From a virus (lineage: Duplodnaviria; Caudoviricetes), in the IMG/VR virus record IMGVR_UViG_3300046010_000754, positions 1,910-65,909 of that record: 64,000 bases of DNA; one strand, 5' to 3'. Below the pieces are notes generated by a model that did no database searches, was not told where the DNA came from, and saw only the letters and a list, made by a program, of their open reading frames with translations. Of this stretch, positions 17,827 to 58,914 are shown piece after piece; the stretch's first letter is position 1, and each line of letters opens with the position of its first letter. The translations under genes were made by a program, and so were the position numbers.

Positions 17827-17837
17827 AGAAAGCCCCA

Positions 17838-19383: not shown

Positions 19384-21486
19384 ATGCCACTAAAGAAGCT
19401 ACTGCTCAAGCCCGGTGTAAACCGTGAGAACACACGGTATACGAACGAAGGGGGCTGGTACGAGAGCGAGAAGATTCGCTTTCGTCAAGGCACGCCTGAA
19501 AAGATCGGCGGGTGGGAGCGTATTTCTTCGGCCACGTTCTTGGGCGTTTGCCGTTCCCTGTGGAACTGGGTGACCCTTGGCGGCATCAACCTGATTGGCG
19601 TGGGCACCAACCTCAAGTTCTACCTTGAAGCTGGCGGTATCTACAACGACATCACCCCCTTCCGCGATCAGGTCACATTGACCAACCCGTTTGAGACTTT
19701 TAACGGCTCGCCGATTGTTGAGGTGACTGACGCCAACGGCGGATACATTGACGGCGACTTCGTGACGTTCTACGGCGCAACCGCTGTGGGGGGCTTGACC
19801 ATCTTCGGCCAATACGAGATCACAGTCACGGGCACCAACACGTACACGATTACAGCAAGCTCCAACGCTTCGTCGGATGCAACGGGTGGCGGCACGGTGT
19901 ACGCGCTCTATCAGATCAACGTCGGCCCTGCGTATGTGGTGCCGCTTGTGGGCTGGGGTGCTGGCCCTTGGGGTGCTGGCCCTTGGGGGGTTGGCCAATC
20001 GTCTACGGACGCCATCCGTTTGTGGAGCCAACAGAACTACGGCGAGGACTTGATCTTCGGCCCCCGAGAAGGCCCAATTTACTACTGGGATGCCACGTCT
20101 GGCTACACCCCCATCACGTTCGCCGCAACCGTGGCCAACCCCACGGTGATTACTGCCGCTGCCGAATACGCTGAAGGCACGCCCTTGCGCTTTGCGCCTG
20201 ACTCTGGAGCCACGCTGCCCGTGGGCATCACCCCCGGCGAGTTGTACTATGTGCGCAACCCCTCGGGCTCCTCGTTCAACATCTCGCTGACTCCTGCGGG
20301 GGCGCTCATCCAAGTAACCGTTGCGGCTGTGGGCACATGCCGCATCCTGTCGAACGCATACTTGCTCAGCGATTTTGGTGGGGCCACGGACGTACCTGAG
20401 CATCAAAACTACTTGCTGGTGTCTGACATCAGCCGGTTTGTGTTTGCGTTCGGCTGCAACGACTACGGCACGTCTACTGTTGACCCGATGTTGATTCGCT
20501 GGTCTGATCAAGAAGACCCCTACAACTGGACACCCGCATCGACCAACCAAGCAGGTTTCCTGCGCCTGTCTCGCGGCTCTGAGATTGTTACCGCCACGCA
20601 GTCTCGTCAGGAGGTGTTGGTGTGGACTGACGCATCGCTGTATTCACTCCAGTACGTGGGTGCACCGATTGTCTGGGGTGCTCAGCTTGTTGGCGAGAAC
20701 ATCTCCATCGTGGGCCAGAACGCTGTAGCGTATGCCAACGGCGTGTCCTACTGGATGGGCAAAGACAAGTTCTACAAATACGATGGTCGCTCACAGACAT
20801 TGAACTGCGACTTGCGCCGCTACGTGTTCTCGGACATCAACACTGCCCAGTACGCACAGGTGGTGGCTGGCACCAACGAGGGGTTCAACGAAATTTGGTG
20901 GTTTTACTGTTCTGCTGGGTCAGACGTAATCGACAAGTATGTGATCTTCAACTACGCCGAGAACGTCTGGTACTACGGCAACATGGCCCGCACCGCATGG
21001 CTGGATTCCGGCCTGCGCAACTTTCCGCTGGCGGCTACGTATAACAGCAACCTCGTAAACCATGAACAAGGTCTGGACGACAACGCCACGGCAACCACAC
21101 TGCCAATCGAGTCGTGGATCATTTCCTCACAGTTTGACTTGGACGATGGTCACAACTTCATGTTCGTATGGCGCGTGCTGCCTGACATCACGTTCGAGGG
21201 CTCTACCGCTGATGCGCCAAGCGCCACGATGTACCTGCTGCCATTGAAAAACTCTGGCTCTGGGTACTCGGTCAACAAAGCCACCAACGCCGACCACTCG
21301 GTGGCCAACGAGAGTTTTGCCAACATCACGCGAATCGCTGCGCTGCCAGTGGAAGAATATACGGGCCAGATTTTCACTCGGGTGCGTGGTCGCCAGATGT
21401 CAATCAAAGTCGAGTCCACCGGGTTGGGCGTGAACTGGCAATTGGGCGCACCTCGTATTGACATGCGTGCAGACGGTCGCAGGTAA
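19384..21486 (+). CDS. Tail nozzle / stabilisation protein (P22 gp10 / T7 gp12-like)
   Basis: 700 aa, beta-propeller-like (IRWSDQED, EIWWFY, ARTAW, RVRGRQ, DGRR end) with inserted beta domains. Confidence 0.75.
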   Translation: MPLKKLLLKPGVNRENTRYTNEGGWYESEKIRFRQGTPEKIGGWERISSATFLGVCRSLWNWVTLGGINLIGVGTNLKFYLEAGGIYNDITPFRDQVTLTNPFETFNGSPIVEVTDANGGYIDGDFVTFYGATAVGGLTIFGQYEITVTGTNTYTITASSNASSDATGGGTVYALYQINVGPAYVVPLVGWGAGPWGAGPWGVGQSSTDAIRLWSQQNYGEDLIFGPREGPIYYWDATSGYTPITFAATVANPTVITAAAEYAEGTPLRFAPDSGATLPVGITPGELYYVRNPSGSSFNISLTPAGALIQVTVAAVGTCRILSNAYLLSDFGGATDVPEHQNYLLVSDISRFVFAFGCNDYGTSTVDPMLIRWSDQEDPYNWTPASTNQAGFLRLSRGSEIVTATQSRQEVLVWTDASLYSLQYVGAPIVWGAQLVGENISIVGQNAVAYANGVSYWMGKDKFYKYDGRSQTLNCDLRRYVFSDINTAQYAQVVAGTNEGFNEIWWFYCSAGSDVIDKYVIFNYAENVWYYGNMARTAWLDSGLRNFPLAATYNSNLVNHEQGLDDNATATTLPIESWIISSQFDLDDGHNFMFVWRVLPDITFEGSTADAPSATMYLLPLKNSGSGYSVNKATNADHSVANESFANITRIAALPVEEYTGQIFTRVRGRQMSIKVESTGLGVNWQLGAPRIDMRADGRR

Positions 21487-21495: not shown

Positions 21496-22143
21496 ATGTC
21501 AGGCAACCTCACACAGATTGAACCCCCAGCACTACCGCTGGGGACGGATCAGTACCAGCGACCGTACCAAGATCAGTTGAACAACGTCCACCGTCTGTTC
21601 TACAACCGACTGACCAACATCGTCAACGCCGTGCTTGGTAGCAACGGTGGGCAGTACATCGACTGCCCGAACGGTCTGTTTTTCAGCACCACGGATCAAC
21701 CGATTGCTGTGGTAAACGTGGGCCAGCCGATTGACTTCCCAATCGAGTACCTGAACAACGCAGTTCGAGTGAACTCTGGAACGGACAGCCGGGTGTACGT
21801 GGATGTTGGCGGCATTTACAACTTTCAGTTCTCCGGGCAGCTTCGCAGCAATTCGGGCAGCGCCAAGCAGGTGTACATCTGGATTGCCAGAAACGGAATA
21901 GACATCGGGTATTCCACCCACCAGTACACAGTGTCTGGGGGCAACACCCATTTGAACATCTCGTGGAACTTTGACATTGACTTGGGCGCGGGGGAGTACA
22001 TTGAGATGCAATGGGCATCTGATGACATCGACATGTCGCTGGAAGCTGCCGCTGCAACAGGGGTTCATCCGGGTATGCCTTCGGCGGTGATGGCAGTCAA
22101 CTTCATCGCGCCACTGCCCGTGCCACGACCCACCCCGCCATAA
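21496..22143 (+). CDS. Tail needle/knob-like protein
   Basis: N-terminal helix (DQLNNVHRLFYNRL) followed by a C1q/TNF-like beta domain (GIYNFQFSGQL, GEYIEMQW). Confidence 0.6.
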   Translation: MSGNLTQIEPPALPLGTDQYQRPYQDQLNNVHRLFYNRLTNIVNAVLGSNGGQYIDCPNGLFFSTTDQPIAVVNVGQPIDFPIEYLNNAVRVNSGTDSRVYVDVGGIYNFQFSGQLRSNSGSAKQVYIWIARNGIDIGYSTHQYTVSGGNTHLNISWNFDIDLGAGEYIEMQWASDDIDMSLEAAAATGVHPGMPSAVMAVNFIAPLPVPRPTPP

Positions 22144-22160
22144 CAACGCACCGCTTGGCG

Positions 22161-22189
22161 TTGATTCGCGCTGCGCGGTGAGGGATACT
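22161..22189 (+). promoter_or_regulatory. Possible sigma70 promoter for the ACP-KAS pair
   Basis: TTGATT-17 nt-GATACT in the 74-bp intergenic gap. Confidence 0.35.
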
Positions 22190-22217
22190 ACGTGTCCCTC
22201 TTTACCAAGGTGCGAAC

Positions 22218-22499
22218 ATGAATTTTCTTGAACTTTTTAATGGCGTGGTAGACCTCGCCAAGCCTGTCTCTGCCGCGCAGAGTCACGCCGCATCCATGCA
22301 AGATCAGTTGGCTGATCTTAAATTGGACAGCCTCGACACTATCATGCTGGCCATGTACCTCGGGGAAATCTACGGTATCGAAGAAGACACGATGCGGGAA
22401 ATGGAGGCCACCACGGTCACCGATTTGCAAGCCTTTTTGGAAGCGCACAAAACGCACACTCCAACTGATCTTGAAGCTGAACTGGCGAGGGTCAAATGA
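22218..22499 (+). CDS. Acyl carrier protein
   Basis: 93 aa, acidic; LKLDSLD phosphopantetheine-attachment motif (Ser38); helix II then YGIEE...TTVTDL ACP pattern. Confidence 0.85.
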   Translation: MNFLELFNGVVDLAKPVSAAQSHAASMQDQLADLKLDSLDTIMLAMYLGEIYGIEEDTMREMEATTVTDLQAFLEAHKTHTPTDLEAELARVK

Positions 22500-23602
22500 T
22501 TTACCTCACACACCACCGCAACGCCGGAACAACCCACACGGATGTCATTGAAGACCATCCCTACCCACAACGCATCCACTGGTTCCCCGAGACCTACAAC
22601 AACGTCAAGTCGGGGCTGGTCTACCCAGCGCACGTGCTGGCCAACAAAGTCATCGACCCCAAGCTGATCGACTACGTAAGGGAAAACCCTACATCTGGCA
22701 AGACTGGGTTCATCTTGGCCGCAGGCTCCCAAGGCTGGGCAGGCATCCGGGGCAGGCACGACCAGAAAGACGAAGGGCGCTTGCACTTCAAACTCAAGCT
22801 GCCGCTGGTCACCCTGACCAACATCTACGCAGGGCGGGTTGCCTCCATGTTTGGCCCCATGGACTACGTGTCCACAGACGCCAGCGCATGCGCGTCCAGC
22901 ATCAAGGTCTTGCTGGAGGTGCAGAACCTCATGACCAACTTCGGGTTTACCCGTATGATCGTGCTGGGTGTCGAGGACGCCGTAAACAACTCGACGTTGG
23001 AGTTCTTTGGCCAAGCCAAAGCCAGCCTGATGTACAAGGACGAGGCCACCATCAAGCCATCGGCGTTTGACTCCGTGAACGCAGGGTTCAACATTGGGCA
23101 AGGTGCAGGTCTGGCCATCTTCGAGACCGAACCGGCTGTCAATCCTGCCGCCAAAATGCTGGGCACATACACCGCCGCCGAGGACTTTGCCAACCCGTTG
23201 GGCCAGCGCCCTGACGGTCAGGGGTACCAAAAGGCCATTGAGGGTGCGCTGTACATGGCCAAAATCCCTGCCAGCGATGTCAAAATCGTCAAGACGCACG
23301 GTACAGGCACCCAGACCAACAACACGGCTGAGAAGGCTGCTATCCTTGCCCAGTTCCCCGACTTTGTGGCTACATCCTACAAGCAGCGTGTGGGGCACAC
23401 CCTTGCCGCCAGCGGACTGATGGAGACCAGCATGCTCCTGAACAACCTCAAGATCGGTGTCATTCCCGGCATCGTCAACCGCACTGAGCACGATGATGTG
23501 TTTCTGTCCTATGACGCACCGGCCCGTGAGGGGGTGATCGCAGTTCTGGCCGCAGGCATGGGCAACGTGTTCTCAGCGGCGCTGTTTGATCCTTGTGCGT
23601 AA
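22496..23602 (+). CDS. Beta-ketoacyl-ACP synthase (FabF/FabB-like thiolase-fold ketosynthase)
   Basis: Catalytic triad present: ACAS (Cys132), HGTGT (His268), KQRVGHT (His301); GQGAG motif; ATGA coupling to ACP. Confidence 0.9.
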   Translation: MIYLTHHRNAGTTHTDVIEDHPYPQRIHWFPETYNNVKSGLVYPAHVLANKVIDPKLIDYVRENPTSGKTGFILAAGSQGWAGIRGRHDQKDEGRLHFKLKLPLVTLTNIYAGRVASMFGPMDYVSTDASACASSIKVLLEVQNLMTNFGFTRMIVLGVEDAVNNSTLEFFGQAKASLMYKDEATIKPSAFDSVNAGFNIGQGAGLAIFETEPAVNPAAKMLGTYTAAEDFANPLGQRPDGQGYQKAIEGALYMAKIPASDVKIVKTHGTGTQTNNTAEKAAILAQFPDFVATSYKQRVGHTLAASGLMETSMLLNNLKIGVIPGIVNRTEHDDVFLSYDAPAREGVIAVLAAGMGNVFSAALFDPCA

Positions 23603-23648
23603 TAACATGCCAGCATAAAATATCACATGTTTGTAAAGGCGGAACCTG

Positions 23649-24113
23649 ATGGCAACAATGGTAGACAGCAAGAAGGAGCAGCTATCCATACCTGAGATCA
23701 TCACTCGGGCGGCATATAACGACCCAGTTGAGGGCGTGCCTCCGTACGCTGCTATCTTGTCGATCATCAAAGAAGGCACTATGCCGAACACGGAAGTCAC
23801 GCAGTATGGCAACACCGTGTTTATCACCCACTTCAGTAAAGACCGTGACTTAGCGGTTAACCGTGCGCTGAGCGTCGATTCCGCTAAAAATTTCCTCACC
23901 AACGGGGAAGAATACTTCCGTGACTTGGTGCGTGGGGGCACAAAAAAATACGTTGCGCAATTTGACCGGCCCTCGTTTGCCACAGCGTTTATGGCGTTTA
24001 AGCGCAACCCCATCACGACCAAAATGAAAATGTGGATTGTGCAAACCCCCAAAGGACACACGCAGGTTCGTATTGCTTTGGATGGCGAACTTATTGAGGG
24101 GCGTAGAAAATGA
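23649..24113 (+). CDS. Unknown alpha/beta protein in the position of T7 gp13 / P22 gp14 (possibly GNAT-like)
   Basis: 154 aa, coupled (ATGA) to the first ejection protein; fold assignment is positional inference only. Confidence 0.6.
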   Translation: MATMVDSKKEQLSIPEIITRAAYNDPVEGVPPYAAILSIIKEGTMPNTEVTQYGNTVFITHFSKDRDLAVNRALSVDSAKNFLTNGEEYFRDLVRGGTKKYVAQFDRPSFATAFMAFKRNPITTKMKMWIVQTPKGHTQVRIALDGELIEGRRK

Positions 24114-27100
24114 GTTTTGTTGTTGACGCTATTGAAGATGTAGGCGACGCTGTTGGTGACGCATTAGACTGGGTGATTGACGAGGTTATTGACCCCGTGA
24201 TGACCACGGTCAGCAACGTCATTGAGTCCGCGCTCGACAACCCCGTTAAGACCATTGCACAGATCGCTGCGATTGCCACTCAGCAGTATTGGGCACTCCC
24301 ACTCATTGAAGGTGCAGACGTTGCCGCAAAGGGTGGCGATCTCGGGGATGTGCTGGAAGCCACGGCCAAAGCCTACGTTATGCAAGAAGTGGGCTCGTAT
24401 GTTGGTAAAGCGGCGGGCTCCTACGCAGGTACCGCAGCTACCGAAGCTGGCGCATCTGCGGCTTCTGCCAAGATTGCCGAAAACGTGGTGGGCGCAGCCG
24501 CAGGCTCTGCTGCCGTTGCAGTAGTCTCGGGGCAAGACCCAGTAAAGGCGTTCATTACAGGGGGAGTAGGCGCAGCAATGCCTGCTGTTCTTGGCCAAGT
24601 CAGCGGGTTCAAAGAACTACCCGGAAGCGCCCAACGTGTAATCTCCTCTGCGGTGTCTGCGCAGTTGTCGGGAGGCAACGTCACCGCTGCCGTAATCGGG
24701 TCTACTATTGCCGCCTCGGGCATTGTTACCGATGCGCTGAAGTCTTTTGACCCAGACGGTACAAAACTTGACAACACGCAACGCGCAATTCTGACTGATG
24801 TACTCATGGGCACTGCTACTGCCGCAATAACTGGTGGTAGCCCCTCAAACGTCATTAAATCGGCAATGATGAAAGCTGGCTCCAAGGCGCTTGGAGATAT
24901 GGCCACAAACGCGTTTAAGACCGCTACTGCCGAAGCAACCACCTCATACAACGCCGCATCCAAAGTGGCGGACAAGTTGGATGCAAACCAAGCCGCCCAA
25001 GCTACCGCAGCCAAAAACTACAACGATACAGCGGCGGCGTTGCAGAAAAAGATTGACGAGCAAAACAGACTTCAGACTGCGTACAACAATGCTGTTGCCG
25101 CACACAACGCAAACCCAAGCGAAGCTACTGCTAACGCCGCCAACGCTGCGATTGCAACTTACAACTCGTATGTAACAAACCTCAACAAAGAGTACAACGA
25201 CACGTTCAAACCCGCGCTGGACAAATACGGCGGGGAACTTGATTCGCTCAAGCAAGCGGGTGCGGTGCTTACCGGCGACTACGAAAAGGCTATCAAGGCG
25301 TTCTCAACAAAGACTGACACTATCTCGGACGTACTTGACCCAATCTACCGCACAAGTAATCGTGCGTTCGTAGAGGCGATGGATGACAAGTTTGACGCTG
25401 AGCAGTACCGCAAACTAAACGGGCTGGGTGCCGATGTTGACCCCTACGAGCACTTCTTGTCCAAAGGACAATTTGAAGGTGCGCCAACAAACAACAAGTC
25501 TGCTGAGCCGATCATTGCAGCAGAGCGTACTCGTCTTGTTACTCAGGCACTGGAAAGTAAGGGCGTGACGTTGGCTACGGCTGACCCCGCTGTGGTCTCG
25601 AAGATTCTGGACAACATCGACGCAAAGTACGGCAACAACGTCGGTGCAATGAAGGCGGCGTCCATCCAAGACGTGATCAGCGGAAACACCTCGTCAATCA
25701 ACACGCTGGTTGCAGATCAGCAGAACGGTGTATTCCGAGTCGAGGTTCGCGGTGGCAGCTACGGGGAGTGGAACAAGCCCCCGACAGACCGGTTCACTGC
25801 ACCTGCGGGTACCAAGCTGGCCTCGTTTGAGGCGTTCAACAACGGCACTGCCTCGCTGGTCTACGACACCAAGGGTAACCCAGTGTGGATTGAAAACGAC
25901 CCCCGCACTGCGGTTAAGTCGTGGAATCCAGCCCAAGGCGACACAACTCCAACAGTCACGATTGTTGGCAAGAGGCCAACTGAGCAAGAGAAGATTCTTG
26001 CCATGTCGGAACTGACAGGTGCAGATGCCGTCAACGGTGTGGTCTCGCAAGGCATGATCAATGCCGCCAAGACCCTCGTGGGCTGGGCCAAAGACACCGG
26101 GAACTCTACTGTCATCAACACAGCGGCCAACGTCATCAAAGCAGGCGGCGGGTTCATCGAGTCCATCAACGGCATCTCTGCACTGTTTGGTGCGGTGCCG
26201 AAAGACACGGCCATGGGCAAGTTTGCCAACGCGCTGAACAACATAGGTAAAGCCGGGAATACCGCGCAGTACCAAGCTGCAATCAAAGATGTCAAGGACA
26301 TGATCGGCAACGCCAAGGGCGTAGGCGGCACGCTGGCGGCTATCTACAAAGGCGCCACAACGTACCCGCTGGAGTTTGCTGCTGAGTTCATTGGTGTCGA
26401 AGGCTTCCAAGAGATTGCACCGTTCCTAATCGGTGGTGCAGCAACCACTGCTGCCAAAGGTTTGGCGCTGGCCCGAGGAGTCGGCCAACAACTGGCGACC
26501 CGTATTGGCAATGTGGCGGGTATGACCTCTGCAATCTCCACTGACGTGATCGAGTCAGCCGGTGGCGCTGCCGCAGGCGCGTTCGACGAAGCGTACAAAC
26601 TTGCTATCAAGAACGGCAAGAGCGAAGCTGACGCCACAAAGATTGCGCTGGACATCGCACAGAAATCCGGCATCGTCTCGGGTTTGGTGACCGCTGCCTC
26701 TATGGGGCTGGGCGGGGGTGCACTGGAGAAGGCAATCTTCAACGGCAAAGTCTCGGGTACCGGCTTCGGGGATGCGCTGAACAAGCTGGGCCAAGCTGCC
26801 AAGACCGGCACCCAGATCACCATCAAAGAAGGTGTATCGGAAGCTGGCGAGGAAGGTATCACCCAAGCGTTCTTGGAAGGTCAACTCTACAAGCTCGACC
26901 CGAACCGTGACGTAGCTGCAAACATCACTGCCGCCGCTGCCTTTGGCGCAATCGCAGGTGGCCCTATTGCTGGCACCGCGTACGCTGGCTCACAAGCAGG
27001 TGATGTGCTCTCCAACGCCATGATGGGCAACCCACAGATCGCCAGTGTTTTGGAAACCAACAAGGGCAACCCTGCCGCTGCTGATGCAGCACTGGCCAAT

Positions 27101-30100
27101 CTTGGTATTACCGATAACACGATCAAGTCCAACTTGATGAACGTCGTTGACGATACCAACTACACAAGTAGTCAAGAAGCTGCTGACACGTTGGCCAAGC
27201 GCAGCGATTATTCGTTCACCGGTGACGACGTGACTGCACTGACGGGCAAAGGCACCGATCTCACATTGGCCAGCCGTGTTGAGGCATACGTTGACCCCCG
27301 AGTGTTTGACCTTGCCGAAGTCAAAGCCGCCGCCGCTGCCGAAGGCTATACGCTCACAGACGCAGAAGCCGCCAAGTTGGTTGGCCAAAAGGATGAAGCT
27401 GCGGCCACCTCCGCCGCACGTGCCGAGTTTGACCCCAAGGCGACCAACTACGACGAAGCCAAGTCATTCTTTACCGACAAGGGCTACACACCCTCTGCGG
27501 ACGAGATCAAGCAGTTTGTCGGTAGCAAAGCTGAGTCCACACAGACCAAGGCTGTTGCAGACTACGTGAACCCTCGTCAGGTAACAACTGAGGAGGCAAA
27601 GAAGTACCTCACTGATCTGGGGTACAAACCAACCGATGCAGAAGTCAAACGGTTCGTTGGGCAAGTCAATGAAGCCGAGCAAGCCAAGGCCATCGGCACT
27701 TACGTTGACCCCCGCATGGTGGACGAGGGTGAGGTCAAGGCTGCATACGAATCACTGGGGCTGAAGAAGCCTACCGCCGATGACCTCAAGAAGTTGATGG
27801 GGCAGTACGATGAGACTGGGCTGACCGCCAAGGCTACTGAGTACCTGCCAACCGCACGGTTCAACTCCATCATGGCGCAGCTTGACGAGATGAGTTCTGG
27901 CGGTGTCAGCCAAGAAGCAAGGGACGCAATTGATCTGGTGCGTAAAGACCTCACGAAGTCGATTGCCGATACGGGGTTGGAGGTTGCCAAGGTTGCACTG
28001 AAGGTTGATAACGCCAAGGCCGATCTGGAAAAGGCCATCACCACTGCAACCAAAGGCTTGGCCACGCCTGCGGACGTGGATGCGGCTATCGCCAAAATTC
28101 AGTTCCCTGCTGGCCTGTCCAAAGAGGATGTCTCGTCTGCAATCAAGACTTACATGGAGGCCAACCCCGGCCTTAGCTTGGAAGACGTTGCGACAAAGAT
28201 CAGTGAAGCAACAAAGGGGCTGGCCACTTCTGAGGGCGTTAAGACCGAGATAGCCGCGGCTATCAAGGGGCTCGCCACAACCAAAGACATTGAGACTGCG
28301 ATCTCAAACATCAAGTTCCCTGCGGGGATCACCAAAGAAGATGTTGCCGCTGAGATCAAGACTTACATGGAGGCCAACCCCGGCCTATCCCTCGCGGATG
28401 TTGCATCGAAGATTGGGGATGCGACAAAAGGGCTTGCCACTTCTGAAGGTGTCAAGACCGAAATAGCTGCGGCAGTCAAAGGACTCGCAACCACTCAGGA
28501 CATTAAAGACGCCATCGCTGGGATTGAGTTCCCTGCGGGGCTGTCTAAGGATGATGTCTCGTCTGCAATCAAAATCTACATGGAGGCCAACCCCGGCCTG
28601 TCTATCGACGAAGTTGCAACGAAGATCGGTGATGCAACCAAAGGACTGGCTACTCCAGAGCAGGTAAAGACCGCAATCGAAACTGCGTTGACAGGGGTTG
28701 CCACAACCGCCGAAGTCAAAACTGCAATCTCAGACGCGCTCAAAACCACTGAAGGTCGGTTCGACACAATCGACAAAGCCATCCAAGACTTGCGTGACGC
28801 AGGGCTCACGGCAGAAGACGTTAGGGCTACGGTTGATAAGATCGTAGGCAGTGCTGGTACAGACAAAACTGCGGCCACGGGCATCTACGCGCACATCGAC
28901 GGGGTGAACACCAAGATCGACAACATCAATACGTTGATCGGTGCACCTGCCGAGGGCGATACGGCTGCGACTGGCCTGTACGCCAAGATTGCCGAGAACG
29001 AAGCCGCTGGCATGAAGCGCGAGGAAGCAACGCAAAAAGCGATTGCCGATGTTGCCGCTGACCTTGGCACCACCAAAGCCGACTTGCTCAAGTCGTTGGG
29101 CACCACCGAAGGCAACCTCACTCGCAAGATTGAGGGGCTGGAGACTGCACTGACGACCACCGAGAAGAACATTCTCGACAGAGTGAAAGAGTATGAGAAG
29201 GCTGGGCTTACCCGCGACGAGGCTACTCAGAAAGCCATCGAGACTGTTGCCGCAGACCTTGGCACTACCAAGGCAGACTTGCTCACTGCGCTCGGTACAA
29301 CGGAGGCAAACCTCACCAAGTCAATGACTGACCTGAGCACTCAGGTGTCTGACTTGAGCACCAAACTCGGGGACGTAGAGACCAACATCTTGTCGAAGAT
29401 GGCGGACTACGAAAAAGCTGGCATCGGTCGAGATGAGGCGCTGTCCAAAGCGATTGACGATGTTGCCGCAGACCTCGGCACCACCAAAGCAGACCTGTTG
29501 AGCCAGATTGGTACGACAGAAGCCACCCTGAAAGAAGAAGTCGGGCTGGTCGAAACAAACCTTGGTGCCAAGATTGCTGACGCCAAGGATGAAGTCCTCA
29601 AGGAACTGGGGCTGGCCAAGACTGGCCTGAGCGAAGAAATCTCAGCGTCCGAAGGAAGAACGGCTACCAAGATTGGTGATGTCGAGACCAACATCTTGGC
29701 AAAGATGGCCAACTACGAAAAGGCTGGCATTGGGCGCGACGAAGCATTGAGTAGGGCAATCGACGACGTGTCTGCCGAACTTGGCACCACACGCACTGAC
29801 ATCCTTACACAGATCGGCAAGACTGAGGCGAACCTCAAAGCTGATCTGGCCAGCACCAAGACTGAACTGAAGACTGACATCGGCACCGCCAAACAGGAAG
29901 TGCTGGACAGGGCGGCTGAGTACGAGAAGGCGGGTATTGCACGCGACCAAGCACTTCAGTTGGCGCAGGCAGACATGGCCAAGACCTTGGGTCAAGGCAC
30001 ACAGCAAGCCACGCAGTCTGATCTGGACGCAGTGATCAACCTGCTGCAAACCCAAGGTGCGTACGATGCGCAGTACGACTACAACGGCGACAGGGTAATC

Positions 30101-30544
30101 GACCAAAACGATAAGGTTGCGATTGAGAATTACCTCAACCGTTCACCCGATACTACTGCGCCGTTTACCCCTGCTGCTGGCTCCAAGTGGGCACCCACGG
30201 GCGTGTTCAAGACTGTGGCGGACGAGGCCGAGGCCACCCGTCAAGCGCAAGCTGCGGAAGCTGAGAAGACCCGCCAAGCTGCCACTCGTAACGCCGCTAA
30301 CCAAGCACGCTTGGGCAACATCAACTCCCTGACCAGCATGCTGGCGCAGGCAGGCGACACCGGAGGCCAACAAGTCACGGTAAAAGCTGCCGATCCTGCC
30401 AAGATTGGGTACATTTATGACTGGAACAGCATTTTCGCTAACCCATCACAGGAAAAGATGTTTGCGTCCCCTTTCGCACAGGGCGGCATGGTGGACGGCT
30501 CTGATGATGTAAACGAAGAATTGCTCAAGATATTGAAAGGCTGA
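24110..30544 (+). CDS. Giant Ala/Gly-rich internal virion (ejection) protein with multiple repeat arrays
   Basis: 2144 aa; hydrophobic G/A-rich segments, 71-aa tandem repeats, YEKAG repeats, EF-hand/dockerin-like loop, C-terminal FAQGG. Confidence 0.75.
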   Translation: MSFVVDAIEDVGDAVGDALDWVIDEVIDPVMTTVSNVIESALDNPVKTIAQIAAIATQQYWALPLIEGADVAAKGGDLGDVLEATAKAYVMQEVGSYVGKAAGSYAGTAATEAGASAASAKIAENVVGAAAGSAAVAVVSGQDPVKAFITGGVGAAMPAVLGQVSGFKELPGSAQRVISSAVSAQLSGGNVTAAVIGSTIAASGIVTDALKSFDPDGTKLDNTQRAILTDVLMGTATAAITGGSPSNVIKSAMMKAGSKALGDMATNAFKTATAEATTSYNAASKVADKLDANQAAQATAAKNYNDTAAALQKKIDEQNRLQTAYNNAVAAHNANPSEATANAANAAIATYNSYVTNLNKEYNDTFKPALDKYGGELDSLKQAGAVLTGDYEKAIKAFSTKTDTISDVLDPIYRTSNRAFVEAMDDKFDAEQYRKLNGLGADVDPYEHFLSKGQFEGAPTNNKSAEPIIAAERTRLVTQALESKGVTLATADPAVVSKILDNIDAKYGNNVGAMKAASIQDVISGNTSSINTLVADQQNGVFRVEVRGGSYGEWNKPPTDRFTAPAGTKLASFEAFNNGTASLVYDTKGNPVWIENDPRTAVKSWNPAQGDTTPTVTIVGKRPTEQEKILAMSELTGADAVNGVVSQGMINAAKTLVGWAKDTGNSTVINTAANVIKAGGGFIESINGISALFGAVPKDTAMGKFANALNNIGKAGNTAQYQAAIKDVKDMIGNAKGVGGTLAAIYKGATTYPLEFAAEFIGVEGFQEIAPFLIGGAATTAAKGLALARGVGQQLATRIGNVAGMTSAISTDVIESAGGAAAGAFDEAYKLAIKNGKSEADATKIALDIAQKSGIVSGLVTAASMGLGGGALEKAIFNGKVSGTGFGDALNKLGQAAKTGTQITIKEGVSEAGEEGITQAFLEGQLYKLDPNRDVAANITAAAAFGAIAGGPIAGTAYAGSQAGDVLSNAMMGNPQIASVLETNKGNPAAADAALANLGITDNTIKSNLMNVVDDTNYTSSQEAADTLAKRSDYSFTGDDVTALTGKGTDLTLASRVEAYVDPRVFDLAEVKAAAAAEGYTLTDAEAAKLVGQKDEAAATSAARAEFDPKATNYDEAKSFFTDKGYTPSADEIKQFVGSKAESTQTKAVADYVNPRQVTTEEAKKYLTDLGYKPTDAEVKRFVGQVNEAEQAKAIGTYVDPRMVDEGEVKAAYESLGLKKPTADDLKKLMGQYDETGLTAKATEYLPTARFNSIMAQLDEMSSGGVSQEARDAIDLVRKDLTKSIADTGLEVAKVALKVDNAKADLEKAITTATKGLATPADVDAAIAKIQFPAGLSKEDVSSAIKTYMEANPGLSLEDVATKISEATKGLATSEGVKTEIAAAIKGLATTKDIETAISNIKFPAGITKEDVAAEIKTYMEANPGLSLADVASKIGDATKGLATSEGVKTEIAAAVKGLATTQDIKDAIAGIEFPAGLSKDDVSSAIKIYMEANPGLSIDEVATKIGDATKGLATPEQVKTAIETALTGVATTAEVKTAISDALKTTEGRFDTIDKAIQDLRDAGLTAEDVRATVDKIVGSAGTDKTAATGIYAHIDGVNTKIDNINTLIGAPAEGDTAATGLYAKIAENEAAGMKREEATQKAIADVAADLGTTKADLLKSLGTTEGNLTRKIEGLETALTTTEKNILDRVKEYEKAGLTRDEATQKAIETVAADLGTTKADLLTALGTTEANLTKSMTDLSTQVSDLSTKLGDVETNILSKMADYEKAGIGRDEALSKAIDDVAADLGTTKADLLSQIGTTEATLKEEVGLVETNLGAKIADAKDEVLKELGLAKTGLSEEISASEGRTATKIGDVETNILAKMANYEKAGIGRDEALSRAIDDVSAELGTTRTDILTQIGKTEANLKADLASTKTELKTDIGTAKQEVLDRAAEYEKAGIARDQALQLAQADMAKTLGQGTQQATQSDLDAVINLLQTQGAYDAQYDYNGDRVIDQNDKVAIENYLNRSPDTTAPFTPAAGSKWAPTGVFKTVADEAEATRQAQAAEAEKTRQAATRNAANQARLGNINSLTSMLAQAGDTGGQQVTVKAADPAKIGYIYDWNSIFANPSQEKMFASPFAQGGMVDGSDDVNEELLKILKG
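28050..28700 (+). repeat. Three tandem 213-nt (71-aa) repeats
   Basis: TACATGGAGGCCAACCCCGGCCT at 28151, 28364 and 28577. Confidence 0.9.
28990..29990 (+). repeat. Degenerate helical repeats YEKAG..RDEA...AI.DV.A.LGTT
   Basis: 4-5 copies visible in protein and DNA (CTYGGCACYAC at ~29063, 29258, 29474, 29780). Confidence 0.8.
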
Positions 30545-30546
30545 TC

Positions 30547-31491
30547 ATGGCAGGCTACTACGACGAAGAAACGGGTGCATGGATTGAGGATGAGCTTGGG
30601 GGAATCCAAGAGGAACTCACCAATGAAACCTCCGGCACCGACAGCATGGAGGGGTGGAACTACGGAAACGGCGTATGGACTGACCCCTCGGGCGAGAAGT
30701 ACGACATGAGCTACTTGACTCCCAACGAACAGTTGGACTTGGGTGGCAAGCTGTCAAAGCTGGGGCAGATTGCCGCAAACAAACTGGTCAAGACATTCAC
30801 CCAGCCCAATGGCGACACCGACTGGCGTTCTGTGGCTGGTGCCGTAGGTGGTTTGTACGGTTTGTACAAGAGCCAGCAGAAACCCGAGAAGACGGGCTAC
30901 CAAGGCGGCATCCCTAAGTACGAAGCGGTGCGTGAGAAGGTGGCCAACACCTATGACCCCGACCGCCGTCCGGGTAGCTCAGCGCAAGAGTATTTCACCA
31001 AAACTCGTTTTGGTGCACCCGAGGGTGCCGAAGCCGCTCGCACTGCCGCCAAGGAAGAAGCCGCTGGTCTGGAGGCTCTGAACAAATCCAACCCTGCCCG
31101 TCAAGAGCGTGCGGTGTTGCAAGCTGGTGCTGAAAAGAAGGAAGCGGAAAAGAAGGAAGCAGTCAAGCCTGCTTCCTCTGTCATCGACAAACTACCCGTG
31201 CCAAAGTACGCATCCGGTGGCATCGCTGATATGGCCAAGGGCCGATATTTAGGTGGCGCAACCGATGGTATGGCTGATAAAATTCCAGCACGAATTGGCG
31301 GAAAACAAGAGGCACGATTAAGTCATGGTGAGTTCGTTATTCCCGCAGATGTTGTTGGGCACCTTGGCAACGGTAACTCTGAAGCGGGTGCCAAGCGCCT
31401 GTACGAAATGATGGATCGAATCCGTCAAGCACGCACCGGTACGACCAAGCAGGGTAGACAGGTCAACCCCAACAAATTTTTGCCCAAGTGA
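30547..31491 (+). CDS. Internal virion protein with C-terminal DG.AD.IPA...LS.GEFV domain
   Basis: 314 aa; YASGG...DGMADKIPARI...RLSHGEFVIPADVV. Confidence 0.72.
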   Translation: MAGYYDEETGAWIEDELGGIQEELTNETSGTDSMEGWNYGNGVWTDPSGEKYDMSYLTPNEQLDLGGKLSKLGQIAANKLVKTFTQPNGDTDWRSVAGAVGGLYGLYKSQQKPEKTGYQGGIPKYEAVREKVANTYDPDRRPGSSAQEYFTKTRFGAPEGAEAARTAAKEEAAGLEALNKSNPARQERAVLQAGAEKKEAEKKEAVKPASSVIDKLPVPKYASGGIADMAKGRYLGGATDGMADKIPARIGGKQEARLSHGEFVIPADVVGHLGNGNSEAGAKRLYEMMDRIRQARTGTTKQGRQVNPNKFLPK

Positions 31492-31499
31492 GGTAAGAC

Positions 31500-32417
31500 A
31501 TGGCAACAGCACCATCTTCAGGAACTACCGGCTCTGCCGCTGACACCGGAGTCGGCCAACAAACCGGCACCGAGTCGTCTCTCTCCAACTGGGCAGGGCC
31601 GTATGTAACGGACATGCTGGGTCGCGGTCAAGCACTGGCCAACCAAGACTACCAAGCCTACGGTGGCCCAATGACTGCGGGGGAGTCTGACCTCCAGAAA
31701 ACCGCGTTCCAAGGTATTGCTGGCCTGACCATTCCTACTGACCAGATGGGTGCATTCACCCCTCAACAATTCAGTGCGGATGCTGCCGAACAGTACATGA
31801 ACCCCTACCTGACTGCGGCGCTCAACCCGCAGATCGAGGAGGCCAGACGCCAGTCGCAGATTCAAAATCTGCAAAACCGCACCGCCATGACCAAAGCTGG
31901 CGCGTTCGGCGGTGGCCGGGGTGCCTTGATGGAGTCCGAGAACCAGCGCAACCTGCTGCAAAACTTGTCAGGCATCACCGGCAAGGGCTACTCAGACGCC
32001 TACACACAGGCGATGAACCAATTTAACGTCGAGCAGGGCCGTGGCCAAACAGCGCAAGACGCCGCCAACACTTACGGTCTGGCCGCGCTCCAGAAGCAGG
32101 GCGAAGCTGGCCAAGTCCAACGCGACATCGAGCAACAAGGTATCACCGCCGATGTCAAAGAGTTCGAGACCCAGCGCGAGTTCCCGTACAAGCAGGTGCA
32201 ATATCAGCAGTCGCTGCTCCAAGGTTTGCCCCTTGCCGCACAAACGTACTCGTACTCACAACCCAGCGCACTGTCTGAGATTCTCAGCGGCGGTGGTGGC
32301 CTCATGGACTTGTATGATCGTTTGTTCCCAGACCCCAGCAAACCGGCAGCAACGACGGCACCTAAATCGTCCGGTACGACAGGCACCGGTTCTGGCTCAA
32401 CTACGACCACGGGATAA
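31500..32417 (+). CDS. DNA ejection/transfer protein
   Basis: Q/G/A-rich; YMNPY...AGAFGGGRG motif typical of podovirus ejection proteins; GAGG RBS. Confidence 0.72.
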   Translation: MATAPSSGTTGSAADTGVGQQTGTESSLSNWAGPYVTDMLGRGQALANQDYQAYGGPMTAGESDLQKTAFQGIAGLTIPTDQMGAFTPQQFSADAAEQYMNPYLTAALNPQIEEARRQSQIQNLQNRTAMTKAGAFGGGRGALMESENQRNLLQNLSGITGKGYSDAYTQAMNQFNVEQGRGQTAQDAANTYGLAALQKQGEAGQVQRDIEQQGITADVKEFETQREFPYKQVQYQQSLLQGLPLAAQTYSYSQPSALSEILSGGGGLMDLYDRLFPDPSKPAATTAPKSSGTTGTGSGSTTTTG

Positions 32418-32426
32418 GGACACAAC

Positions 32427-34262
32427 ATGTCAGTACCAAACGCTACACCGCAAGGTCTTGCAGGACTCATGCAACAACGTCCGCAAGCCCCGCAAATGCC
32501 CACCCCCGGAAAAGCCAGCCCCATGGCTGGGCTGGGGAGTGTGGACGACCGTGTTTCCGCCTACCAAGGCAACACCAAGCCGCTGGAGCAACGCTATGCG
32601 ATGACGCAGGACTTGCTCGATCTGTTGGCACTCCAAAAGATCAAATCGCAAAAGGAAGCCGCCGCTCGTCAGATGCAGTTGCAGATGGCCCAGCAAGGCC
32701 AGCAAGACGGTCAAGCCAACATGACTGTGGCGCAACAGCGTGAGCAAGAGGTTGCCGAGATGTCCAAGAACGAGCTTGCACAGCAACGTGGGGATACTGC
32801 GCAGAAGCAGACGGGTGATCAACAGGCCATGATGCAGAAGTTGATGGGTGGTATCGCTGGGGCTCCCGGCGCGAACGCCGCTGCACAGCCAAAGATGTTT
32901 GCTTCAGGCGGCATCATTGGGTACGCTGGCCCTCAAGGTAGCAGTGTAGAAGACCCCCGTCGCAAACGCTTGGAAGGCGAAAGCCTGCCCGAATACAATC
33001 GCCGCATGCTGGAGTTGGATTTACAACTTAGCAAAGAAGGTACGGCGTCACGTGAGTCCGCACGGGAAGCGGAACGGCAACGGATGTTAGCCGAGCGTGG
33101 GGGTGCGGCGATCCCGCCGAGTCGTTTGTTTGCCCGCAAGCCACTTGAGTTGCCCGGTGCCGCTGGCCCACTACCAACTGCTCCGGCCCCCGCACGCCCG
33201 CCCGTATCCGAGGCGCAAGCAACTGCCGCCGCTGGCCCTCAAGCTGCGGTGCCTCCTACCGCCGCCCAACCCCCTCGCCCACCTGCGCCTCCTGCTGCTC
33301 CCAAGCCACCCGCACCTACCGGTGGACTTCCTACGCTGCCCGGTGCTGCTGGCCCTGCCGCACCCGCTGGCCCTGCCGCCCCCGCTGCTCCATCCTTCGG
33401 CGACCGGTTCAAGAAAGCCTCTATTGACGCGGCTGAGTTGGACAATATGCAGCAAGGCCGCACCGAAGAAGCGCGTGTTGAGAAACGTATGGCCCTCACG
33501 CCTGAACAACGTGGTGTGTACGACGAAGGTATTGCAGGGCTGCAAGGTATGTACCAAGAACAGTACGACCCCGAACGCATGCGCCGTGAAGGTATCAAAC
33601 GCGCCCTGATTGGCGCTGGTGGTCGCCGCTATGGTGAACTCGGCGCTGCTGCTGGCGCGGGTATGGCATACGACGACCGGATGCGTGCTGCCAAGCTCAA
33701 AGAGTTCGGCGATGTGCAGAAGGCCCGCACCGATCTTATTGGCATTGACCGTGCAAACGTCAAGAACGCTATTGACGCTGGCGCAGCGGTGGCAAAAGAA
33801 GGCGCAGCAACCAAGCGCCAAGGACTTGCTTCTTCCGCCAATGCGTACAGCACCGATGTAGGCTCCAGCGATAAAGCCCTTGACCGTGAAGTTGAACGCC
33901 TCAAGGTGGCTGCACAAAACGCAGCTACTGCCGCACAACGTGAAGGTTTATCGCAAGACAAGAACCGAAATCTTTACTTGATGCAACTTAACAGAGTTGA
34001 GCAATTGGAACGCAATTTGGATAAGGATTTTGCATCGGGCCCATTGGGTATGTTGTTGATGCAAGACCCTGCTAAGTTGAAGCCCGAAGACAAAAACCGT
34101 CTGGAAATTGCTAAACTGGAACTTGAGCAGAAGAAAGCCAAGATTCGTAGGGACATGGAGCCTGTCTTGGCGGACGTGCGCCGGACGCTTGGCATATCAG
34201 ACGCTAAGATGTCAAAGGAAGAAGAAGCGGCGCTCCAGCGTAATCTGAACCGAGGAAAATAA
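32427..34262 (+). CDS. Internal virion/ejection protein with Pro/Ala-rich linker
   Basis: 611 aa; Q-rich N-terminus, FASGG motif, PA-rich linker, coiled C-terminus. Confidence 0.7.
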   Translation: MSVPNATPQGLAGLMQQRPQAPQMPTPGKASPMAGLGSVDDRVSAYQGNTKPLEQRYAMTQDLLDLLALQKIKSQKEAAARQMQLQMAQQGQQDGQANMTVAQQREQEVAEMSKNELAQQRGDTAQKQTGDQQAMMQKLMGGIAGAPGANAAAQPKMFASGGIIGYAGPQGSSVEDPRRKRLEGESLPEYNRRMLELDLQLSKEGTASRESAREAERQRMLAERGGAAIPPSRLFARKPLELPGAAGPLPTAPAPARPPVSEAQATAAAGPQAAVPPTAAQPPRPPAPPAAPKPPAPTGGLPTLPGAAGPAAPAGPAAPAAPSFGDRFKKASIDAAELDNMQQGRTEEARVEKRMALTPEQRGVYDEGIAGLQGMYQEQYDPERMRREGIKRALIGAGGRRYGELGAAAGAGMAYDDRMRAAKLKEFGDVQKARTDLIGIDRANVKNAIDAGAAVAKEGAATKRQGLASSANAYSTDVGSSDKALDREVERLKVAAQNAATAAQREGLSQDKNRNLYLMQLNRVEQLERNLDKDFASGPLGMLLMQDPAKLKPEDKNRLEIAKLELEQKKAKIRRDMEPVLADVRRTLGISDAKMSKEEEAALQRNLNRGK

Positions 34263-34263
34263 T

Positions 34264-37200
34264 ATGGACTTTCAGACCGCGCTGGCCGCGATGCGTAACG
34301 CAGAAGCGGCGGGTAACTTTGAGGATGCCAAAACACTGGCGCAACTTGCACAGCGCCTCCGAAATAGTTCCCCCGAAGAATCTGATCTTGAGTCCCGCCT
34401 GCAACAGTTACGCGCCGAACGTGAGGAACTGCTCAAGCCAAAACCTACTGTCGGTGGGTATGCCAAAGAAGCCTTCAAGGGGTTGGTACCCGGCGCGATT
34501 GGTCTGGCCGAAACCGCAGGAACTGGCATCGCATCCATGCTGCCCGACAGCACGGAAAAGGCCGCACGCGAGAAAATCAAAGAGCTTGCCGGTCTCGCCA
34601 AGAAGCCGTTTGAAGCCGCACCGGGGTATGAAGATTCGGTCGTGCGTAAGCTGAGCGAAGGCTTGGGCTCAACACTGCCGTTCTTTGCCGCTGGCCCGTT
34701 TGGTCTGGCTGGCCGTGTAGCCGCTGGTGGTCTGGGCGTTGCCGCTGGCGCTGGTGAAGCACGTGAGTCCGCTGAAGCCAAGGGTGCTACTGCTGACGAA
34801 CGCCGCGCCGCCACCCTGCTGGGTGCACCTACTGGTCTGCTCGACTTGCTGGCACCACAACTTGGCCCACTCAAGAAAGTCTTGGGCAAAGAACTTAGCT
34901 CAGTTCAGTCCTTGATGGGCACCGCCGTAGCACGTGGTGGTATTGAAGGCGCAACGGAAGCTGCGCAGAAGATTGCACAGAACCTGATTGCCAAGGGCGT
35001 GTACGACCCAAGCCAAGAGATTCTCGTTGGCTCAGGAGAAGAAGGTGCCTATGGCGCTGGAGTCGGTGCACTGGCCAGCTTGATTGTTGACATGACCATT
35101 GGCCGCAAGGCTCGTCGTGCATCGCTGGGTCTGGACAAAGAAACCCCCGAAACCGATACCAAACCCAAGACTCCCGAACAACAACTGTTGGGGTACACCG
35201 CCGAACCATTCACCCCTGTGGCGTTGCCTGACGGCTCTGTCATCACGTCCAAAGCCGAATACGACGAGTACGTTAAGTCCAAAGAAGGCACCGCACGTCA
35301 GCGTGAGGAAGACCTCCGCACCTCCGACCCATTGGCTGCGCTGTCGTCATTTGATCGTACCCTTGCACGCCGTGGCAAAGAAGCCGCGCTGGAAGAAACA
35401 TTCAAGTCTCAAGAGCCTGACTTGCTCGGCGAGCTTACCCCCGCACGGGAGCGGGTCGAAGAACAGCCCAAAGCCGAGGAAGACCCCTTTGCCGTAAAGC
35501 GGGACGACAAGACCCGCGACATGATCGACGAGTTGGAAACCCAACAAGTTGAGGAGTTGTACGCAAAGGACGAACGCGCTGCCGCTGAAAAAGAGCGCCT
35601 GAAGTTTGAGTCCGACCTTGCCGAACTGACTGGCAAGATGGAGCGTAAGCAGGAGAAAACATCTGAGGACAACCGCCTTCAGTTGCTGCTGCCGATTGTC
35701 GAGTCCAACGTCAAGAACATCCCCAAGGTGTTTGTCACAGAACTCAAGCGTGCAGGTTTTACCAACACCAACCTGACTGATCGTGAGCGCAACCTCATCA
35801 ACCGTGCCTACGATATTCGTCTGGCCGAGGAGCCCGTGGCTGAAGCCGAACAGGAGGTGCAAGCCACCGAGGGGCAGAAGAAAGAACTGCGTTCCATCGA
35901 GTCGTTGATCCCTGAAAAGAAGCCACAGCGTGCACAGGAGCAGATGGGTTTCCCCGGCATGGGCAAGCCGAAGGGTGCCGCACCCCAAGCCTTCTCCGAG
36001 GAGGAACTCGCGTCTCAGGAAAAGCCATTCACTGGCCGCTCTGACGAAGCCCCTCGCTCGTACACATCCACAGCACCGTTCCAAACTGTGCTGACACCGG
36101 AAGTGCTGACCGCCGCTGGCCTGCCCAAGCAGTCGGGCTTCTACAAGCAGTTGCTGAACATGGACATGGCCGACACCGCTCAACAGCCGGTCGTCGCAAA
36201 CATCTTCGGGCGTATCCGCACCAACCCCAACCTGTCTGCACCTACCAAGGATGCCGTAGAGAAACTGGCGATGCAGGCGTTTGGCGGTTTGGCCAAGCAA
36301 GGTGACATGTTCGTACCCGCCAAGCCAACCAAGGCTGCTAAGGAGGACAAGAAAGATGCGACTGCAACAAAACCCGCAGCCGGAAAATCCGCTGAACGAG
36401 GACGTGATAAGGACGCAGGAGATGTCGCTGGAGGAACTGGAACTCGCGCTGAAGATCGCAAAGAGAGCGGTCGAAAGGACGAGCGCACTGGAGCCCCTGC
36501 TGATACCAAGCGAACTGAAGCACCTAAGTCCGCTGGACTGGGAGATCGTGGGAAACCTGCTGGTGACGCTGGAAGTCGAGCAAGCGTGGAGTCGGGTGCA
36601 CTGAAGAAGACCGAACCCAAGACCGAGGCTAAGACAAAATCTACCGTTGATGTGGCGTGGGGGATGCTCCAACGTGCGGAAGCAGCCCAGCGCGAAGCAG
36701 ACGAAGCCGCTAAGGGTAAACCCGAAGCCAAGACTGAAGCCAAGGGCAAAGCCAAGACCGAAGCTAAGCCCAAACCTAATGCAAGTTTTGGTGCATACGG
36801 CCAAGTGATGGAAGCAGAGAGTAAATCCGATGCGCTCGACTATCTGGCATACGACATGTACGTGGCCATGTTCGAGAAGTTCAAGCTGCTCACCCGTGTC
36901 AGCACGCTCAATGACATCAACGCACAACTGCGCGAAGGCAAACTCCCCGGTGAAGTTGCGTTCGGTCGTGAAGGTACAACGTCGATTGTCCCGCTGAGCG
37001 GTGGCAAGTACGCCAAGACGTTCTACGAATCCCTGTCTGCCGCCGACAAGAAAGCGCTGGCCCGAAAGATGGCAGACTACTTTGGCAAGTCTGAAACTGA
37101 AGTCCGCCGTGGAATCGAAAGCGCCAACGCTGCCCAAGCACTGTCCCGCGCCAACGTCGAGCAGTTCAAAGGCGATGAGTTGGAACTCGCACGTGACGCT

Positions 37201-58913: not shown

Positions 58914-58914
58914 T

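Follow-up and report, generated by a model that had tools for sequence, protein, structure and literature searches.

What would a bacteriophage gain from an acyl carrier protein (ACP) and a ketosynthase (KS) encoded in its late arm, and which protein would use an acyl chain carried there? The question is raised by a 64,000-nt stretch of phage DNA, positions 1,910 to 65,909 of IMG/VR virus record IMGVR_UViG_3300046010_000754, which was analysed as a whole and is referred to here as the window. The record is a complete genome of 65.9 kb from an uncultured, short-tailed phage, in which the late arm runs rightward and the replication arm leftward. In the late arm an ACP-like gene (93 aa, 22218..22499, + strand) is followed on the same strand by a FabF-like KS gene (368 aa, 22496..23602), a gene for a 154-aa protein with a predicted GNAT fold (23649..24113) and a gene for a 2144-aa protein, probably an internal virion or ejection protein (24110..30544). 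ATGA overlaps couple the ACP gene to the KS gene (22496-22499) and the 154-aa gene to the 2144-aa gene (24110-24113). An earlier, sequence-only reading had placed the four open reading frames (ORFs) and both couplings exactly so. It had suggested that the phage diverts host acyl chains onto its own ACP and acylates its ejection proteins with them, or else makes a dedicated lipid or small molecule.

The answer which we favour, with a confidence a little short of even, is that the ACP and KS provide a private supply of acyl-ACP, probably feeding the GNAT. Genes in the window were assigned from Pfam and PHROG profile searches of the predicted proteins. What is new here is the GNAT fold of the 154-aa protein, the phage-specific nature of the ACP-KS pair, and its accessory, mobile distribution across loci.

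The ketosynthase and its carrier

The KS matches both ketoacyl-synthase families in Pfam, with E values of 1.1e-17 and 8.3e-11. The scores, 42.4 bits for PF00109 and 64.6 bits for PF02801, are over the cut-off of 20.8 in either case. Among the PHROG families it matches phrog_35856 (E 4.2e-31), and its closest solved relative is FabF of S. pneumoniae (1ox0, E 2.5e-19). An AF2 model of the protein has a predicted local distance difference test score (pLDDT) of 94.8, and FabF structures are its best fold match (E 9.2e-23, TM up to 0.82). When E. coli FabF was added to the family alignment, its C163, H303, H340 and K335 fell on C132, H268, H301 and K296 of the phage enzyme. These four residues are invariant in all 139 members of the KS family, in which identity goes down to about 30%.

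The gate loop is another matter. The GFGG gate loop of elongating ketosynthases holds a gatekeeper Phe. E. coli FabF G399-F400-G401-G402 aligns with G354-M355-G356-N357 of the phage KS, so that the gatekeeper Phe is replaced by Met. G354, M355 and G356 are invariant in 139/139 family members and N357 is found in 138. The phage protein is also about 45 residues shorter than E. coli FabF (368 against 413 aa) and only 21% identical to it. The intact Cys132-His268-His301 triad, the loss of the usual SFGFGG motif and a shortened N-terminus had been noted in the sequence-only reading, and the alignment bears out the triad, the altered motif and the smaller size of the protein. Judged in this way the KS is an enzyme, but no ordinary FabF.

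The attachment serine of the 93-aa product, S38, lies in a DSLD motif (residues 37-40). All of 23 relatives, six of them from loci without an intact KS, keep D37, S38 and D40, in a set whose overall identity falls as low as 25%. The product matches the PHROG family 'acyl carrier protein' at E 4.3e-4. In a search of the PDB, 44 sequences were found at E<=1, nearly all of them ACPs aligned on DSLD, the best at E 0.027. We read the product as a divergent ACP in which selection acts on the attachment serine, and this upholds the previous naming of an ACP with Ser38 in a DSL motif. The invariant carrier serine and catalytic set together make both members of the pair look catalytically competent, as had been proposed.

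The location of the ACP and KS genes in a late operon, among structural genes, would also be expected if both had been exapted as non-catalytic scaffolds, chaperones or virion components. However, the four catalytic residues of the KS are kept in 139/139 sequences, and the carrier serine in 23/23, down to about 30% identity. Such strict conservation rules out a purely structural role, and we regard exaptation as barely credible.

The pair does not form part of a complete fatty acid synthase (FAS) or polyketide synthase, and here too the first interpretation stands. Nowhere in the 65.9-kb genome was there a match at E<=1 to phosphopantetheinyl transferase (PPTase, PF01648), FabD (PF00698), FabA/Z (PF07977) or the short-chain dehydrogenase/reductase type of reductase (PF13561). 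General scans of 38 larger proteins likewise turned up none of the PPTase, FabD, dehydratase or reductase families. With these enzymes missing from the phage genome, the pair would have to lean on those of the host.

Linkage of the pair to the GNAT gene

Related loci were gathered in two ways, through the KS and through the GNAT, and some of the contigs may be near-duplicates from different samples. Selection through the KS gave 35 loci (L001-L021, L103-L112 and L114-L117), three of which end too soon, leaving 32 that were testable. Twenty-four of these 32 have ACP-KS with the GNAT gene directly downstream. Selection through the GNAT gave 79 loci (L024-L102), all but one long enough to be testable, and the full ACP-KS-GNAT trio is present in 64 of the 78. 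A further six have the ACP and GNAT without an intact KS. At L037, an in-frame deletion has left a remnant ORF of 35 aa (L037:4291-4398), which begins like the KS and passes straight into the C-terminal GMGN end of that enzyme, with an intact ACP gene upstream and an intact GNAT gene downstream.

The genes are closely packed. The 4-nt overlap of ACP and KS, which reads ATGA in the window, was found in 90 of 92 loci, and the spacer between KS and GNAT is 11 nt or less in 85 of 87. Of the six loci without an intact KS, four show a 1-nt overlap between the stop of the ACP gene and the start of the GNAT gene. A search for a conserved order of nozzle, ACP, KS, 154-aa and ejection genes had been proposed; the trio is indeed kept in most loci with almost no spacers, but the pair is absent from eight of the 78 GNAT-selected loci. 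One locus has an additional 218-aa ORF, without a Pfam family, between the KS and GNAT genes (L004:10446-11102).

In most related loci the cassette is preceded by a gene for a 700-aa virion protein, and the trio is kept in ten loci where that gene is beyond recognition. Five loci (L043, L054-L056 and L059) encode a 700-aa protein 88-90% identical to that of the window, together with an ACP of 28-34%, a KS of 50-51% and a GNAT of 34-35% identity. In three others (L002, L008 and L013), where the 700-aa protein is 87-92% identical, the corresponding values are 82-83%, 93-97% and 77%. The presence of two allele sets under near-identical 700-aa proteins indicates that ACP, KS and GNAT have been exchanged as a block, a conclusion that uses close relatives only. 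Rank correlations between genes in their identity to the window were uninformative, most loci being at about the same distance. The chaining to the GNAT gene, the retention of the ACP beside it after loss of the KS, and the exchange as a block make the GNAT the likeliest user of acyl-ACP in this lineage.

In what follows every chemical step is inferred; what was observed is the arrangement and coupling of the genes, the catalytic residues, the folds and the distribution over loci. The ACP and KS would be an active pair of carrier and condensing enzyme, private to the phage. Host enzymes would prime the ACP, load it and carry out any reduction. Late in infection the pair would then bring an acyl chain onto the phage ACP, or lengthen one there, and the resulting elongated or 3-oxo acyl-ACP would be kept separate from the host pool. 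In this lineage the pair is an accessory add-on, placed directly before a GNAT gene of the internal virion protein A (IVP-A) type that heads the internal-protein or ejection operon. The chaining of the genes suggests the GNAT as the most likely recipient of the acyl-ACP, with a virion or ejection protein, another late protein, a lipid or a small molecule as candidate acceptors.

The 154-aa protein

An AF2 model of the 154-aa protein, built from a 23-row alignment, has a pLDDT of 91.1 and a predicted TM-score (pTM) of 0.83. The top 48 rows listed by Foldseek against the PDB are almost all GNATs, the best being RimI (5isv, E 2.5e-4). With VIA-align, RimI 2cnm gave a Z of 10.9 and a root mean square deviation of 2.9 over 123 residues, followed by HP0935 (Z 10.8) and GCN5 (Z 10.3); 360 of 999 chains had Z>=8. 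In BFVD, a database of viral structure predictions, uncharacterised phage proteins match best (TM 0.86), and two proteins called 'Internal virion protein A' are found at ranks 29 and 44. The model is therefore assigned a GNAT fold with confidence, the fold that the sequence-only reading had put forward with a question mark. The family has at least 504 relatives in IMG/VR. S7, E42, G54, N55, H61, D77 and N81 are kept in six of six distinct sequences from KS-less loci.

A GNAT-like protein in the slot before the ejection proteins had been named as frequent in T7- and P22-like phages, and this matches the account of Hardies et al. 2016 (PMC4819975). There, IVP-A of T7 is presented as a protein that serves in the assembly of the internal virion proteins without being structural itself, and that matches acetyltransferases in HHpred. 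Homologues of IVP-A are assigned there to P22 and epsilon15, at the same location, with the tail tube gene on one side and the first ejection gene on the other. From its predicted fold, its slot and this class in the literature, the 154-aa gene is best filed as working like an IVP-A-type GNAT. A lead from the Atlas to DUF2824 (score 0.93) was followed and dropped, as Pfam scans of 23 members and a search of the genome gave no match. When a complex of the 154-aa protein and the phage ACP was predicted (alignments A1 and A3), the score was 0.02 against a mark of 0.32, which is evidence neither way.

Acceptors other than protein were considered. The KS might make a 3-oxoacyl-ACP which the GNAT-fold protein condenses with a small amine, in the manner of acyl-homoserine lactone (AHL) or N-acyl amino acid synthases, or this product might be passed into envelope lipid synthesis; host signalling or the host surface would be altered late in infection. 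GNAT-related enzymes that use acyl-ACP do exist, the AHL synthase TofI is among the Foldseek matches (rank 42, E 5.2e-3), and the pair occurs with different third genes. However, TofI ranks well below ordinary acetyltransferases and there was no match to the LuxI family. The fixed position of the GNAT at the head of the ejection operon, even where the pair is absent, fits virion assembly better, and a small product of this kind seems distinctly unlikely.

The downstream protein

The 2144-aa protein is probably an internal virion or ejection protein, as judged from its position and composition. Its N-terminal 300 residues are rich in Ala, Gly and Val and contain hydrophobic stretches; a hydrophobic, Gly/Ala-rich N-terminus of this kind fits a membrane-active ejection protein. 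The N-terminal domain of the protein encoded after the GNAT gene is conserved in relatives, with V30, V34, P45, A54, P64, G75, G76, D80 and G95 as conserved positions and G75 present in 85 of 85 sequences.

The narrower proposal of the sequence-only reading was acylation of the membrane-crossing ejection proteins. In this case the 154-aa protein would lipidate the 2144-aa or another ejection protein with the phage acyl-ACP, for which the lipidation of HlyA by HlyC and of CdiA by CdiC provides precedents (PMC8339906, PMC8510554). The overlap of the GNAT stop with the start of the 2144-aa gene and the expected character of the N-terminus are in its favour, as is the nature of the best structural matches, RimI, HP0935 and GCN5, which are protein N-terminal and lysine acetyltransferases. 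However, no invariant Lys or Cys was found in the conserved N-terminal domain among the 85 sequences, which is weak evidence as the acceptor may lie elsewhere. Moreover, the GNAT has no match to the HlyC family, and it persists unchanged with the large protein where ACP and KS are lacking. We consider this special case of acyl-ACP supply to be unlikely.

Loci without the trio and the metabolic alternative

Several observations weigh against a supply dedicated to the GNAT. The two parts of the cassette can occur separately: in five of the 32 testable KS-selected loci (L009, L010 and L017-L019) ACP-KS lies in the replication module with no GNAT, in three more (L115-L117, T7-like) it is followed by a di-iron, desaturase-like gene and again no GNAT, and in eight of the 78 GNAT-selected loci the GNAT and the large downstream protein stand without ACP and KS. 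Since each is found without the other, the link is facultative. The seven GNAT residues named above are also kept in six of six distinct sequences from loci lacking both ACP and KS. The ACP matches the Pfam PP-binding family (PF00550) at E 0.011 with 16.4 bits, under the curated cut-off of 20.8. The GNAT itself is known by its predicted fold only. No Pfam family was found at E<=10, beyond chance singletons, for the 154-aa protein or any of 23 members of its family, and PF00583 (Acetyltransf_1) did not match it. T7 gp13 (PF11090) and P22 gp14/DUF2824 (PF11039) had no match in the whole genome at E<=10, and neither HlyC (PF02794) at E<=10 nor the Pfam model of LuxI matched the 154-aa protein. 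The acyl-CoA loop of GNATs usually has the motif Q/RxxGxG/A; this is not evident in the 154-aa alignment, where the loop reads RALxxD(S/T)AxNF. Finally, PMC4819975 treats the T7 counterpart as an assembly factor that is not structural, and shows no enzymatic activity for it.

Variable, non-structural surroundings of the pair had been named beforehand as an outcome that would speak against a virion function. They were found in part, in the five replication-module and three T7-like loci; yet in 24 of the 32 the pair lies with the GNAT. In the replication-module loci, ACP-KS is located between a SNF2 helicase gene and a group of small ORFs, endonuclease VII, a DUF2800 exonuclease and an Enc34-type single-stranded DNA-binding protein. 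The ORF of 98-106 aa which lies 3' of the KS in these loci resembles a regulator by eye only and has no Pfam family. One of the contigs (L009:9033-11327) also encodes a 764-aa protein with a polyvalent-protein ADP-ribosyltransferase domain (ART-PolyVal, E 6.5e-12).

L115-L117 are called T7-like from the domains of their tail fibre and terminase, and the cassette lies between the tail-fibre genes and the terminase gene (L115:4138-6367, L116:4725-7002 and L117:5609-7886), the three genes overlapping. The KS is about 35% identical to that of the window. The third product, of 268-269 aa, has two E-x-x-H motifs. Its match to Rubrerythrin has 24.2 bits and in L115 exceeds the cut-off; that to FA_desaturase_2 (E 5.1e-4) does not reach it. 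The protein could be a phage acyl-ACP desaturase.

These loci bear on a broader alternative, a stand-alone auxiliary metabolic cassette in which ACP and KS boost, redirect or hijack host chain elongation for membrane supply. The GNAT would then be an unrelated assembly factor for ejection proteins, and the position of the pair no more than a permissive insertion site in a late operon. The mobility of the pair, seen in three genomic contexts, and its loss or lack in a number of near relatives agree with this, and the weakly desaturase-like third gene of L115-L117 suggests fatty-acyl chemistry rather than protein modification. Lysis genes also lie within the late structural arm of the window (17745-19374), so that position in that arm alone implies no virion role. 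In print, the ACP of a schitovirus has been annotated as an auxiliary metabolic gene (PMC11705849). Set against these points, the phage KS is 21% identical to FabF, about 45 residues shorter and without the gate Phe, and its clade is old and phage-only. Moreover, the near-zero spacers before the GNAT gene, the overlap of ACP and GNAT upon loss of the KS, and the joint exchange exceed what chance insertion would give. A metabolic cassette is a real possibility, though on the unlikely side, and a private acyl-ACP supply which probably feeds the GNAT is retained as the preferred explanation.

Origin of the pair

An exhaustive HMMER search with the KS against 1.84 billion representatives gave 10,900 matches at E<=0.001 and only 81 at E<=1e-30. 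The top matches form about 45 short clusters (about 330-390 aa) with identity down to about 30%, after which come multi-domain (multi-KS) polyketide synthases at 27-30% identity. A pattern scan, which detects close relatives only, covered 185,579 bacterial and archaeal species with a single genome for each and yielded no confirmed relative. Among GenBank phages, MW202545.1 was the only carrier of a full-length relative, at 54% identity, and in the searches made here the KS family was found on phage contigs only. Recent pickup of a host FabF was rejected, given 21% identity to E. coli FabF and a short phage-type family followed by polyketide synthases at 27-30%. Such a pickup was an outcome that the sequence-only reading had named as contrary to its proposal. 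By these comparisons the trimmed-KS clade, with its private carrier, is phage-only and old, and no borrowed host gene.

The pair is accessory and mobile. In the KS tree the replication-context copies fall into two groups inside a clade with an SH-aLRT of 99. At least one move of the pair between genomic contexts is claimed, and a single origin of the replication-context copies remains compatible with the tree.

Genome setting

The late arm of the window begins with genes for the portal (702-3161), a capsid protein (5905-6813), an SU10-type adaptor (10993-11628) and a tail fibre (12939-17072). Two holin-like genes and an M15 endolysin gene (17745-19374) lie between the tail fibre gene and that of the 700-aa virion structural protein (19384..21486, + strand). 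The 700-aa protein matches phrog_3287 'virion structural protein' at E 4.9e-62 and chain Y of PDB entry 9nwi at E 3.9e-14, and that entry has six such chains. It is possibly a tail hub or nozzle. The next gene (21496..22143, + strand) encodes a 215-aa protein with a match to BclA_C at E 7.8e-4 and 19.8 bits, under the cut-off of 38. Its N-terminal segment is conserved, recurring in versions of 63-222 aa in relatives, and its C-terminal domain is variable; a role as tail needle or knob is possible. The labels 'nozzle' and 'needle' given previously to these two genes are plausible as candidate roles. PHROG 3287 and 9nwi bear on the first, and for the 215-aa protein there is the one sub-threshold match.

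A hairpin with a 9-bp stem including one G-T pair and a 3-nt loop, followed by TTT, was read from the sequence at 22180..22200 (+ strand). It falls in the 74-nt spacer 5' of the ACP gene and was not flagged by the terminator scan. No promoter-like site was found in 22144-22217 by the promoter scan. Between 17000 and 25000 the scans gave 6 promoter-like sites, against an expected 4.0±2.1, and 7 terminator-like sites, against 9.0±3.5, so there was no excess of either.

Downstream of the 2144-aa gene there are four more late genes on the + strand (30547..40611), encoding proteins of 314, 305, 611 and 2115 aa, which presumably form the rest of the internal-protein block; synteny of the 314- and 305-aa genes extends to relatives. 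In the 2115-aa protein (34264-40611), an LPD39 'large polyvalent protein' domain was recognised at E 2.8e-20, and the C-terminal region, which matches phrog_10089 at E 1.2e-74, resembles DarB-type anti-restriction proteins. This protein is probably injected and has probably more than one function. The replication arm encodes a primase, a SNF2 helicase, a PD-(D/E)XK nuclease and a family A polymerase. In the early arm (57696-60158, - strand), a DUF2201 metallopeptidase/VWA-like protein of 405 aa adjoins an AAA ATPase of 364 aa.

Significance

ACP, KS and GNAT are each familiar. What is unusual is an old, phage-only clade of trimmed KS enzymes with a private carrier, chained in most loci to the GNAT gene that opens an ejection operon. 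No description of a phage ACP-KS pair before an IVP-A gene was found in the literature searched, where phage ACPs are entered solely as auxiliary metabolic genes (PMC11705849), and a review of ejection proteins (PMC8954989) contains no occurrence of 'acyl' or acetyltransferase. If the pair feeds the GNAT, the long-unexplained IVP-A class gains a testable chemistry, and phages would be seen to produce for themselves the acyl donors used in virion assembly or cell entry. A metabolic cassette, on the other hand, would represent a new kind of lipid-directed host takeover. Loci with the trio, with ACP but no KS, with neither, with the replication-module copy and with the desaturase-linked copy provide natural sets for comparison.

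A more far-reaching idea is that the GNAT-fold IVP-A class of short-tailed phages as a whole consists of acyl-ACP-dependent acyltransferases which lipidate an internal or ejection protein for entry through the host envelope. Most phages would then use host acyl-ACP, and this lineage would have added a private ACP and a trimmed KS for a special chain, for example 3-oxo or odd-length. If true, proteins of the T7 gp13/P22 gp14 type would gain an enzymatic function, and a protein lipidation pathway made by a phage would be on record for the first time. We think it improbable.

Comparison with known systems

The order of the pair, with the ACP gene directly upstream of the KS gene, is that of acpP-fabF in the bacterial type II FAS of E. 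coli, but in the phage the two genes overlap by ATGA. The phage KS has in common with FabF (KAS II) the thiolase fold, the Cys-His-His triad with its Lys and both Pfam KS domains. It differs in its 21% identity, its shortening by about 45 residues and the invariant GMG of its gate loop, where N follows in 138 of 139 sequences. Similarly, the phage ACP shares with AcpP the carrier serine in DSLD, but lies under the Pfam cut-off.

With IVP-A of the T7 gp13 and P22 gp14 type, the phage shares a small gene which heads the internal-protein or ejection operon, just after the tail genes. T7 and P22 are not known to have an ACP or KS in front of the IVP-A gene. The published IVP-A proteins are acetyltransferase-like by remote homology (PMC4819975), and the 154-aa protein is a GNAT by predicted fold. 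It differs from them in having no match to PF11090 or PF11039 at E<=10.

The RTX toxin-activating acyltransferases are described as having a GNAT-like fold without CoA-binding elements and as taking acyl-ACP as donor, with HlyC, ApxIC and CdiC each encoded beside the very large protein that it lipidates (PMC8339906, PMC8510554). Likewise, in the window a GNAT-fold gene is ATGA-coupled to a 2144-aa gene, with an ACP gene nearby. HlyC-type enzymes have a His/Asp dyad; H61 and D77 of the GNAT are conserved and are candidates for its counterpart. In those systems the donor ACP is that of the host, whereas the phage cassette adds a private ACP and KS. As the phage GNAT has no match to the HlyC family (PF02794), the comparison is a working analogy and does not imply membership.

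The add-on itself recalls the rhizobial NodF/NodE/NodA proteins, a bacterial symbiosis system in which a dedicated ACP and ketosynthase lean on the housekeeping FAS to make a special acyl chain. NodA, the dedicated acyltransferase, is not a GNAT, and its acceptor is a chito-oligosaccharide. The likeness lies in the logic that NodF/NodE and the phage pair would have in common, that of a dedicated ACP and KS added on to an existing synthase.

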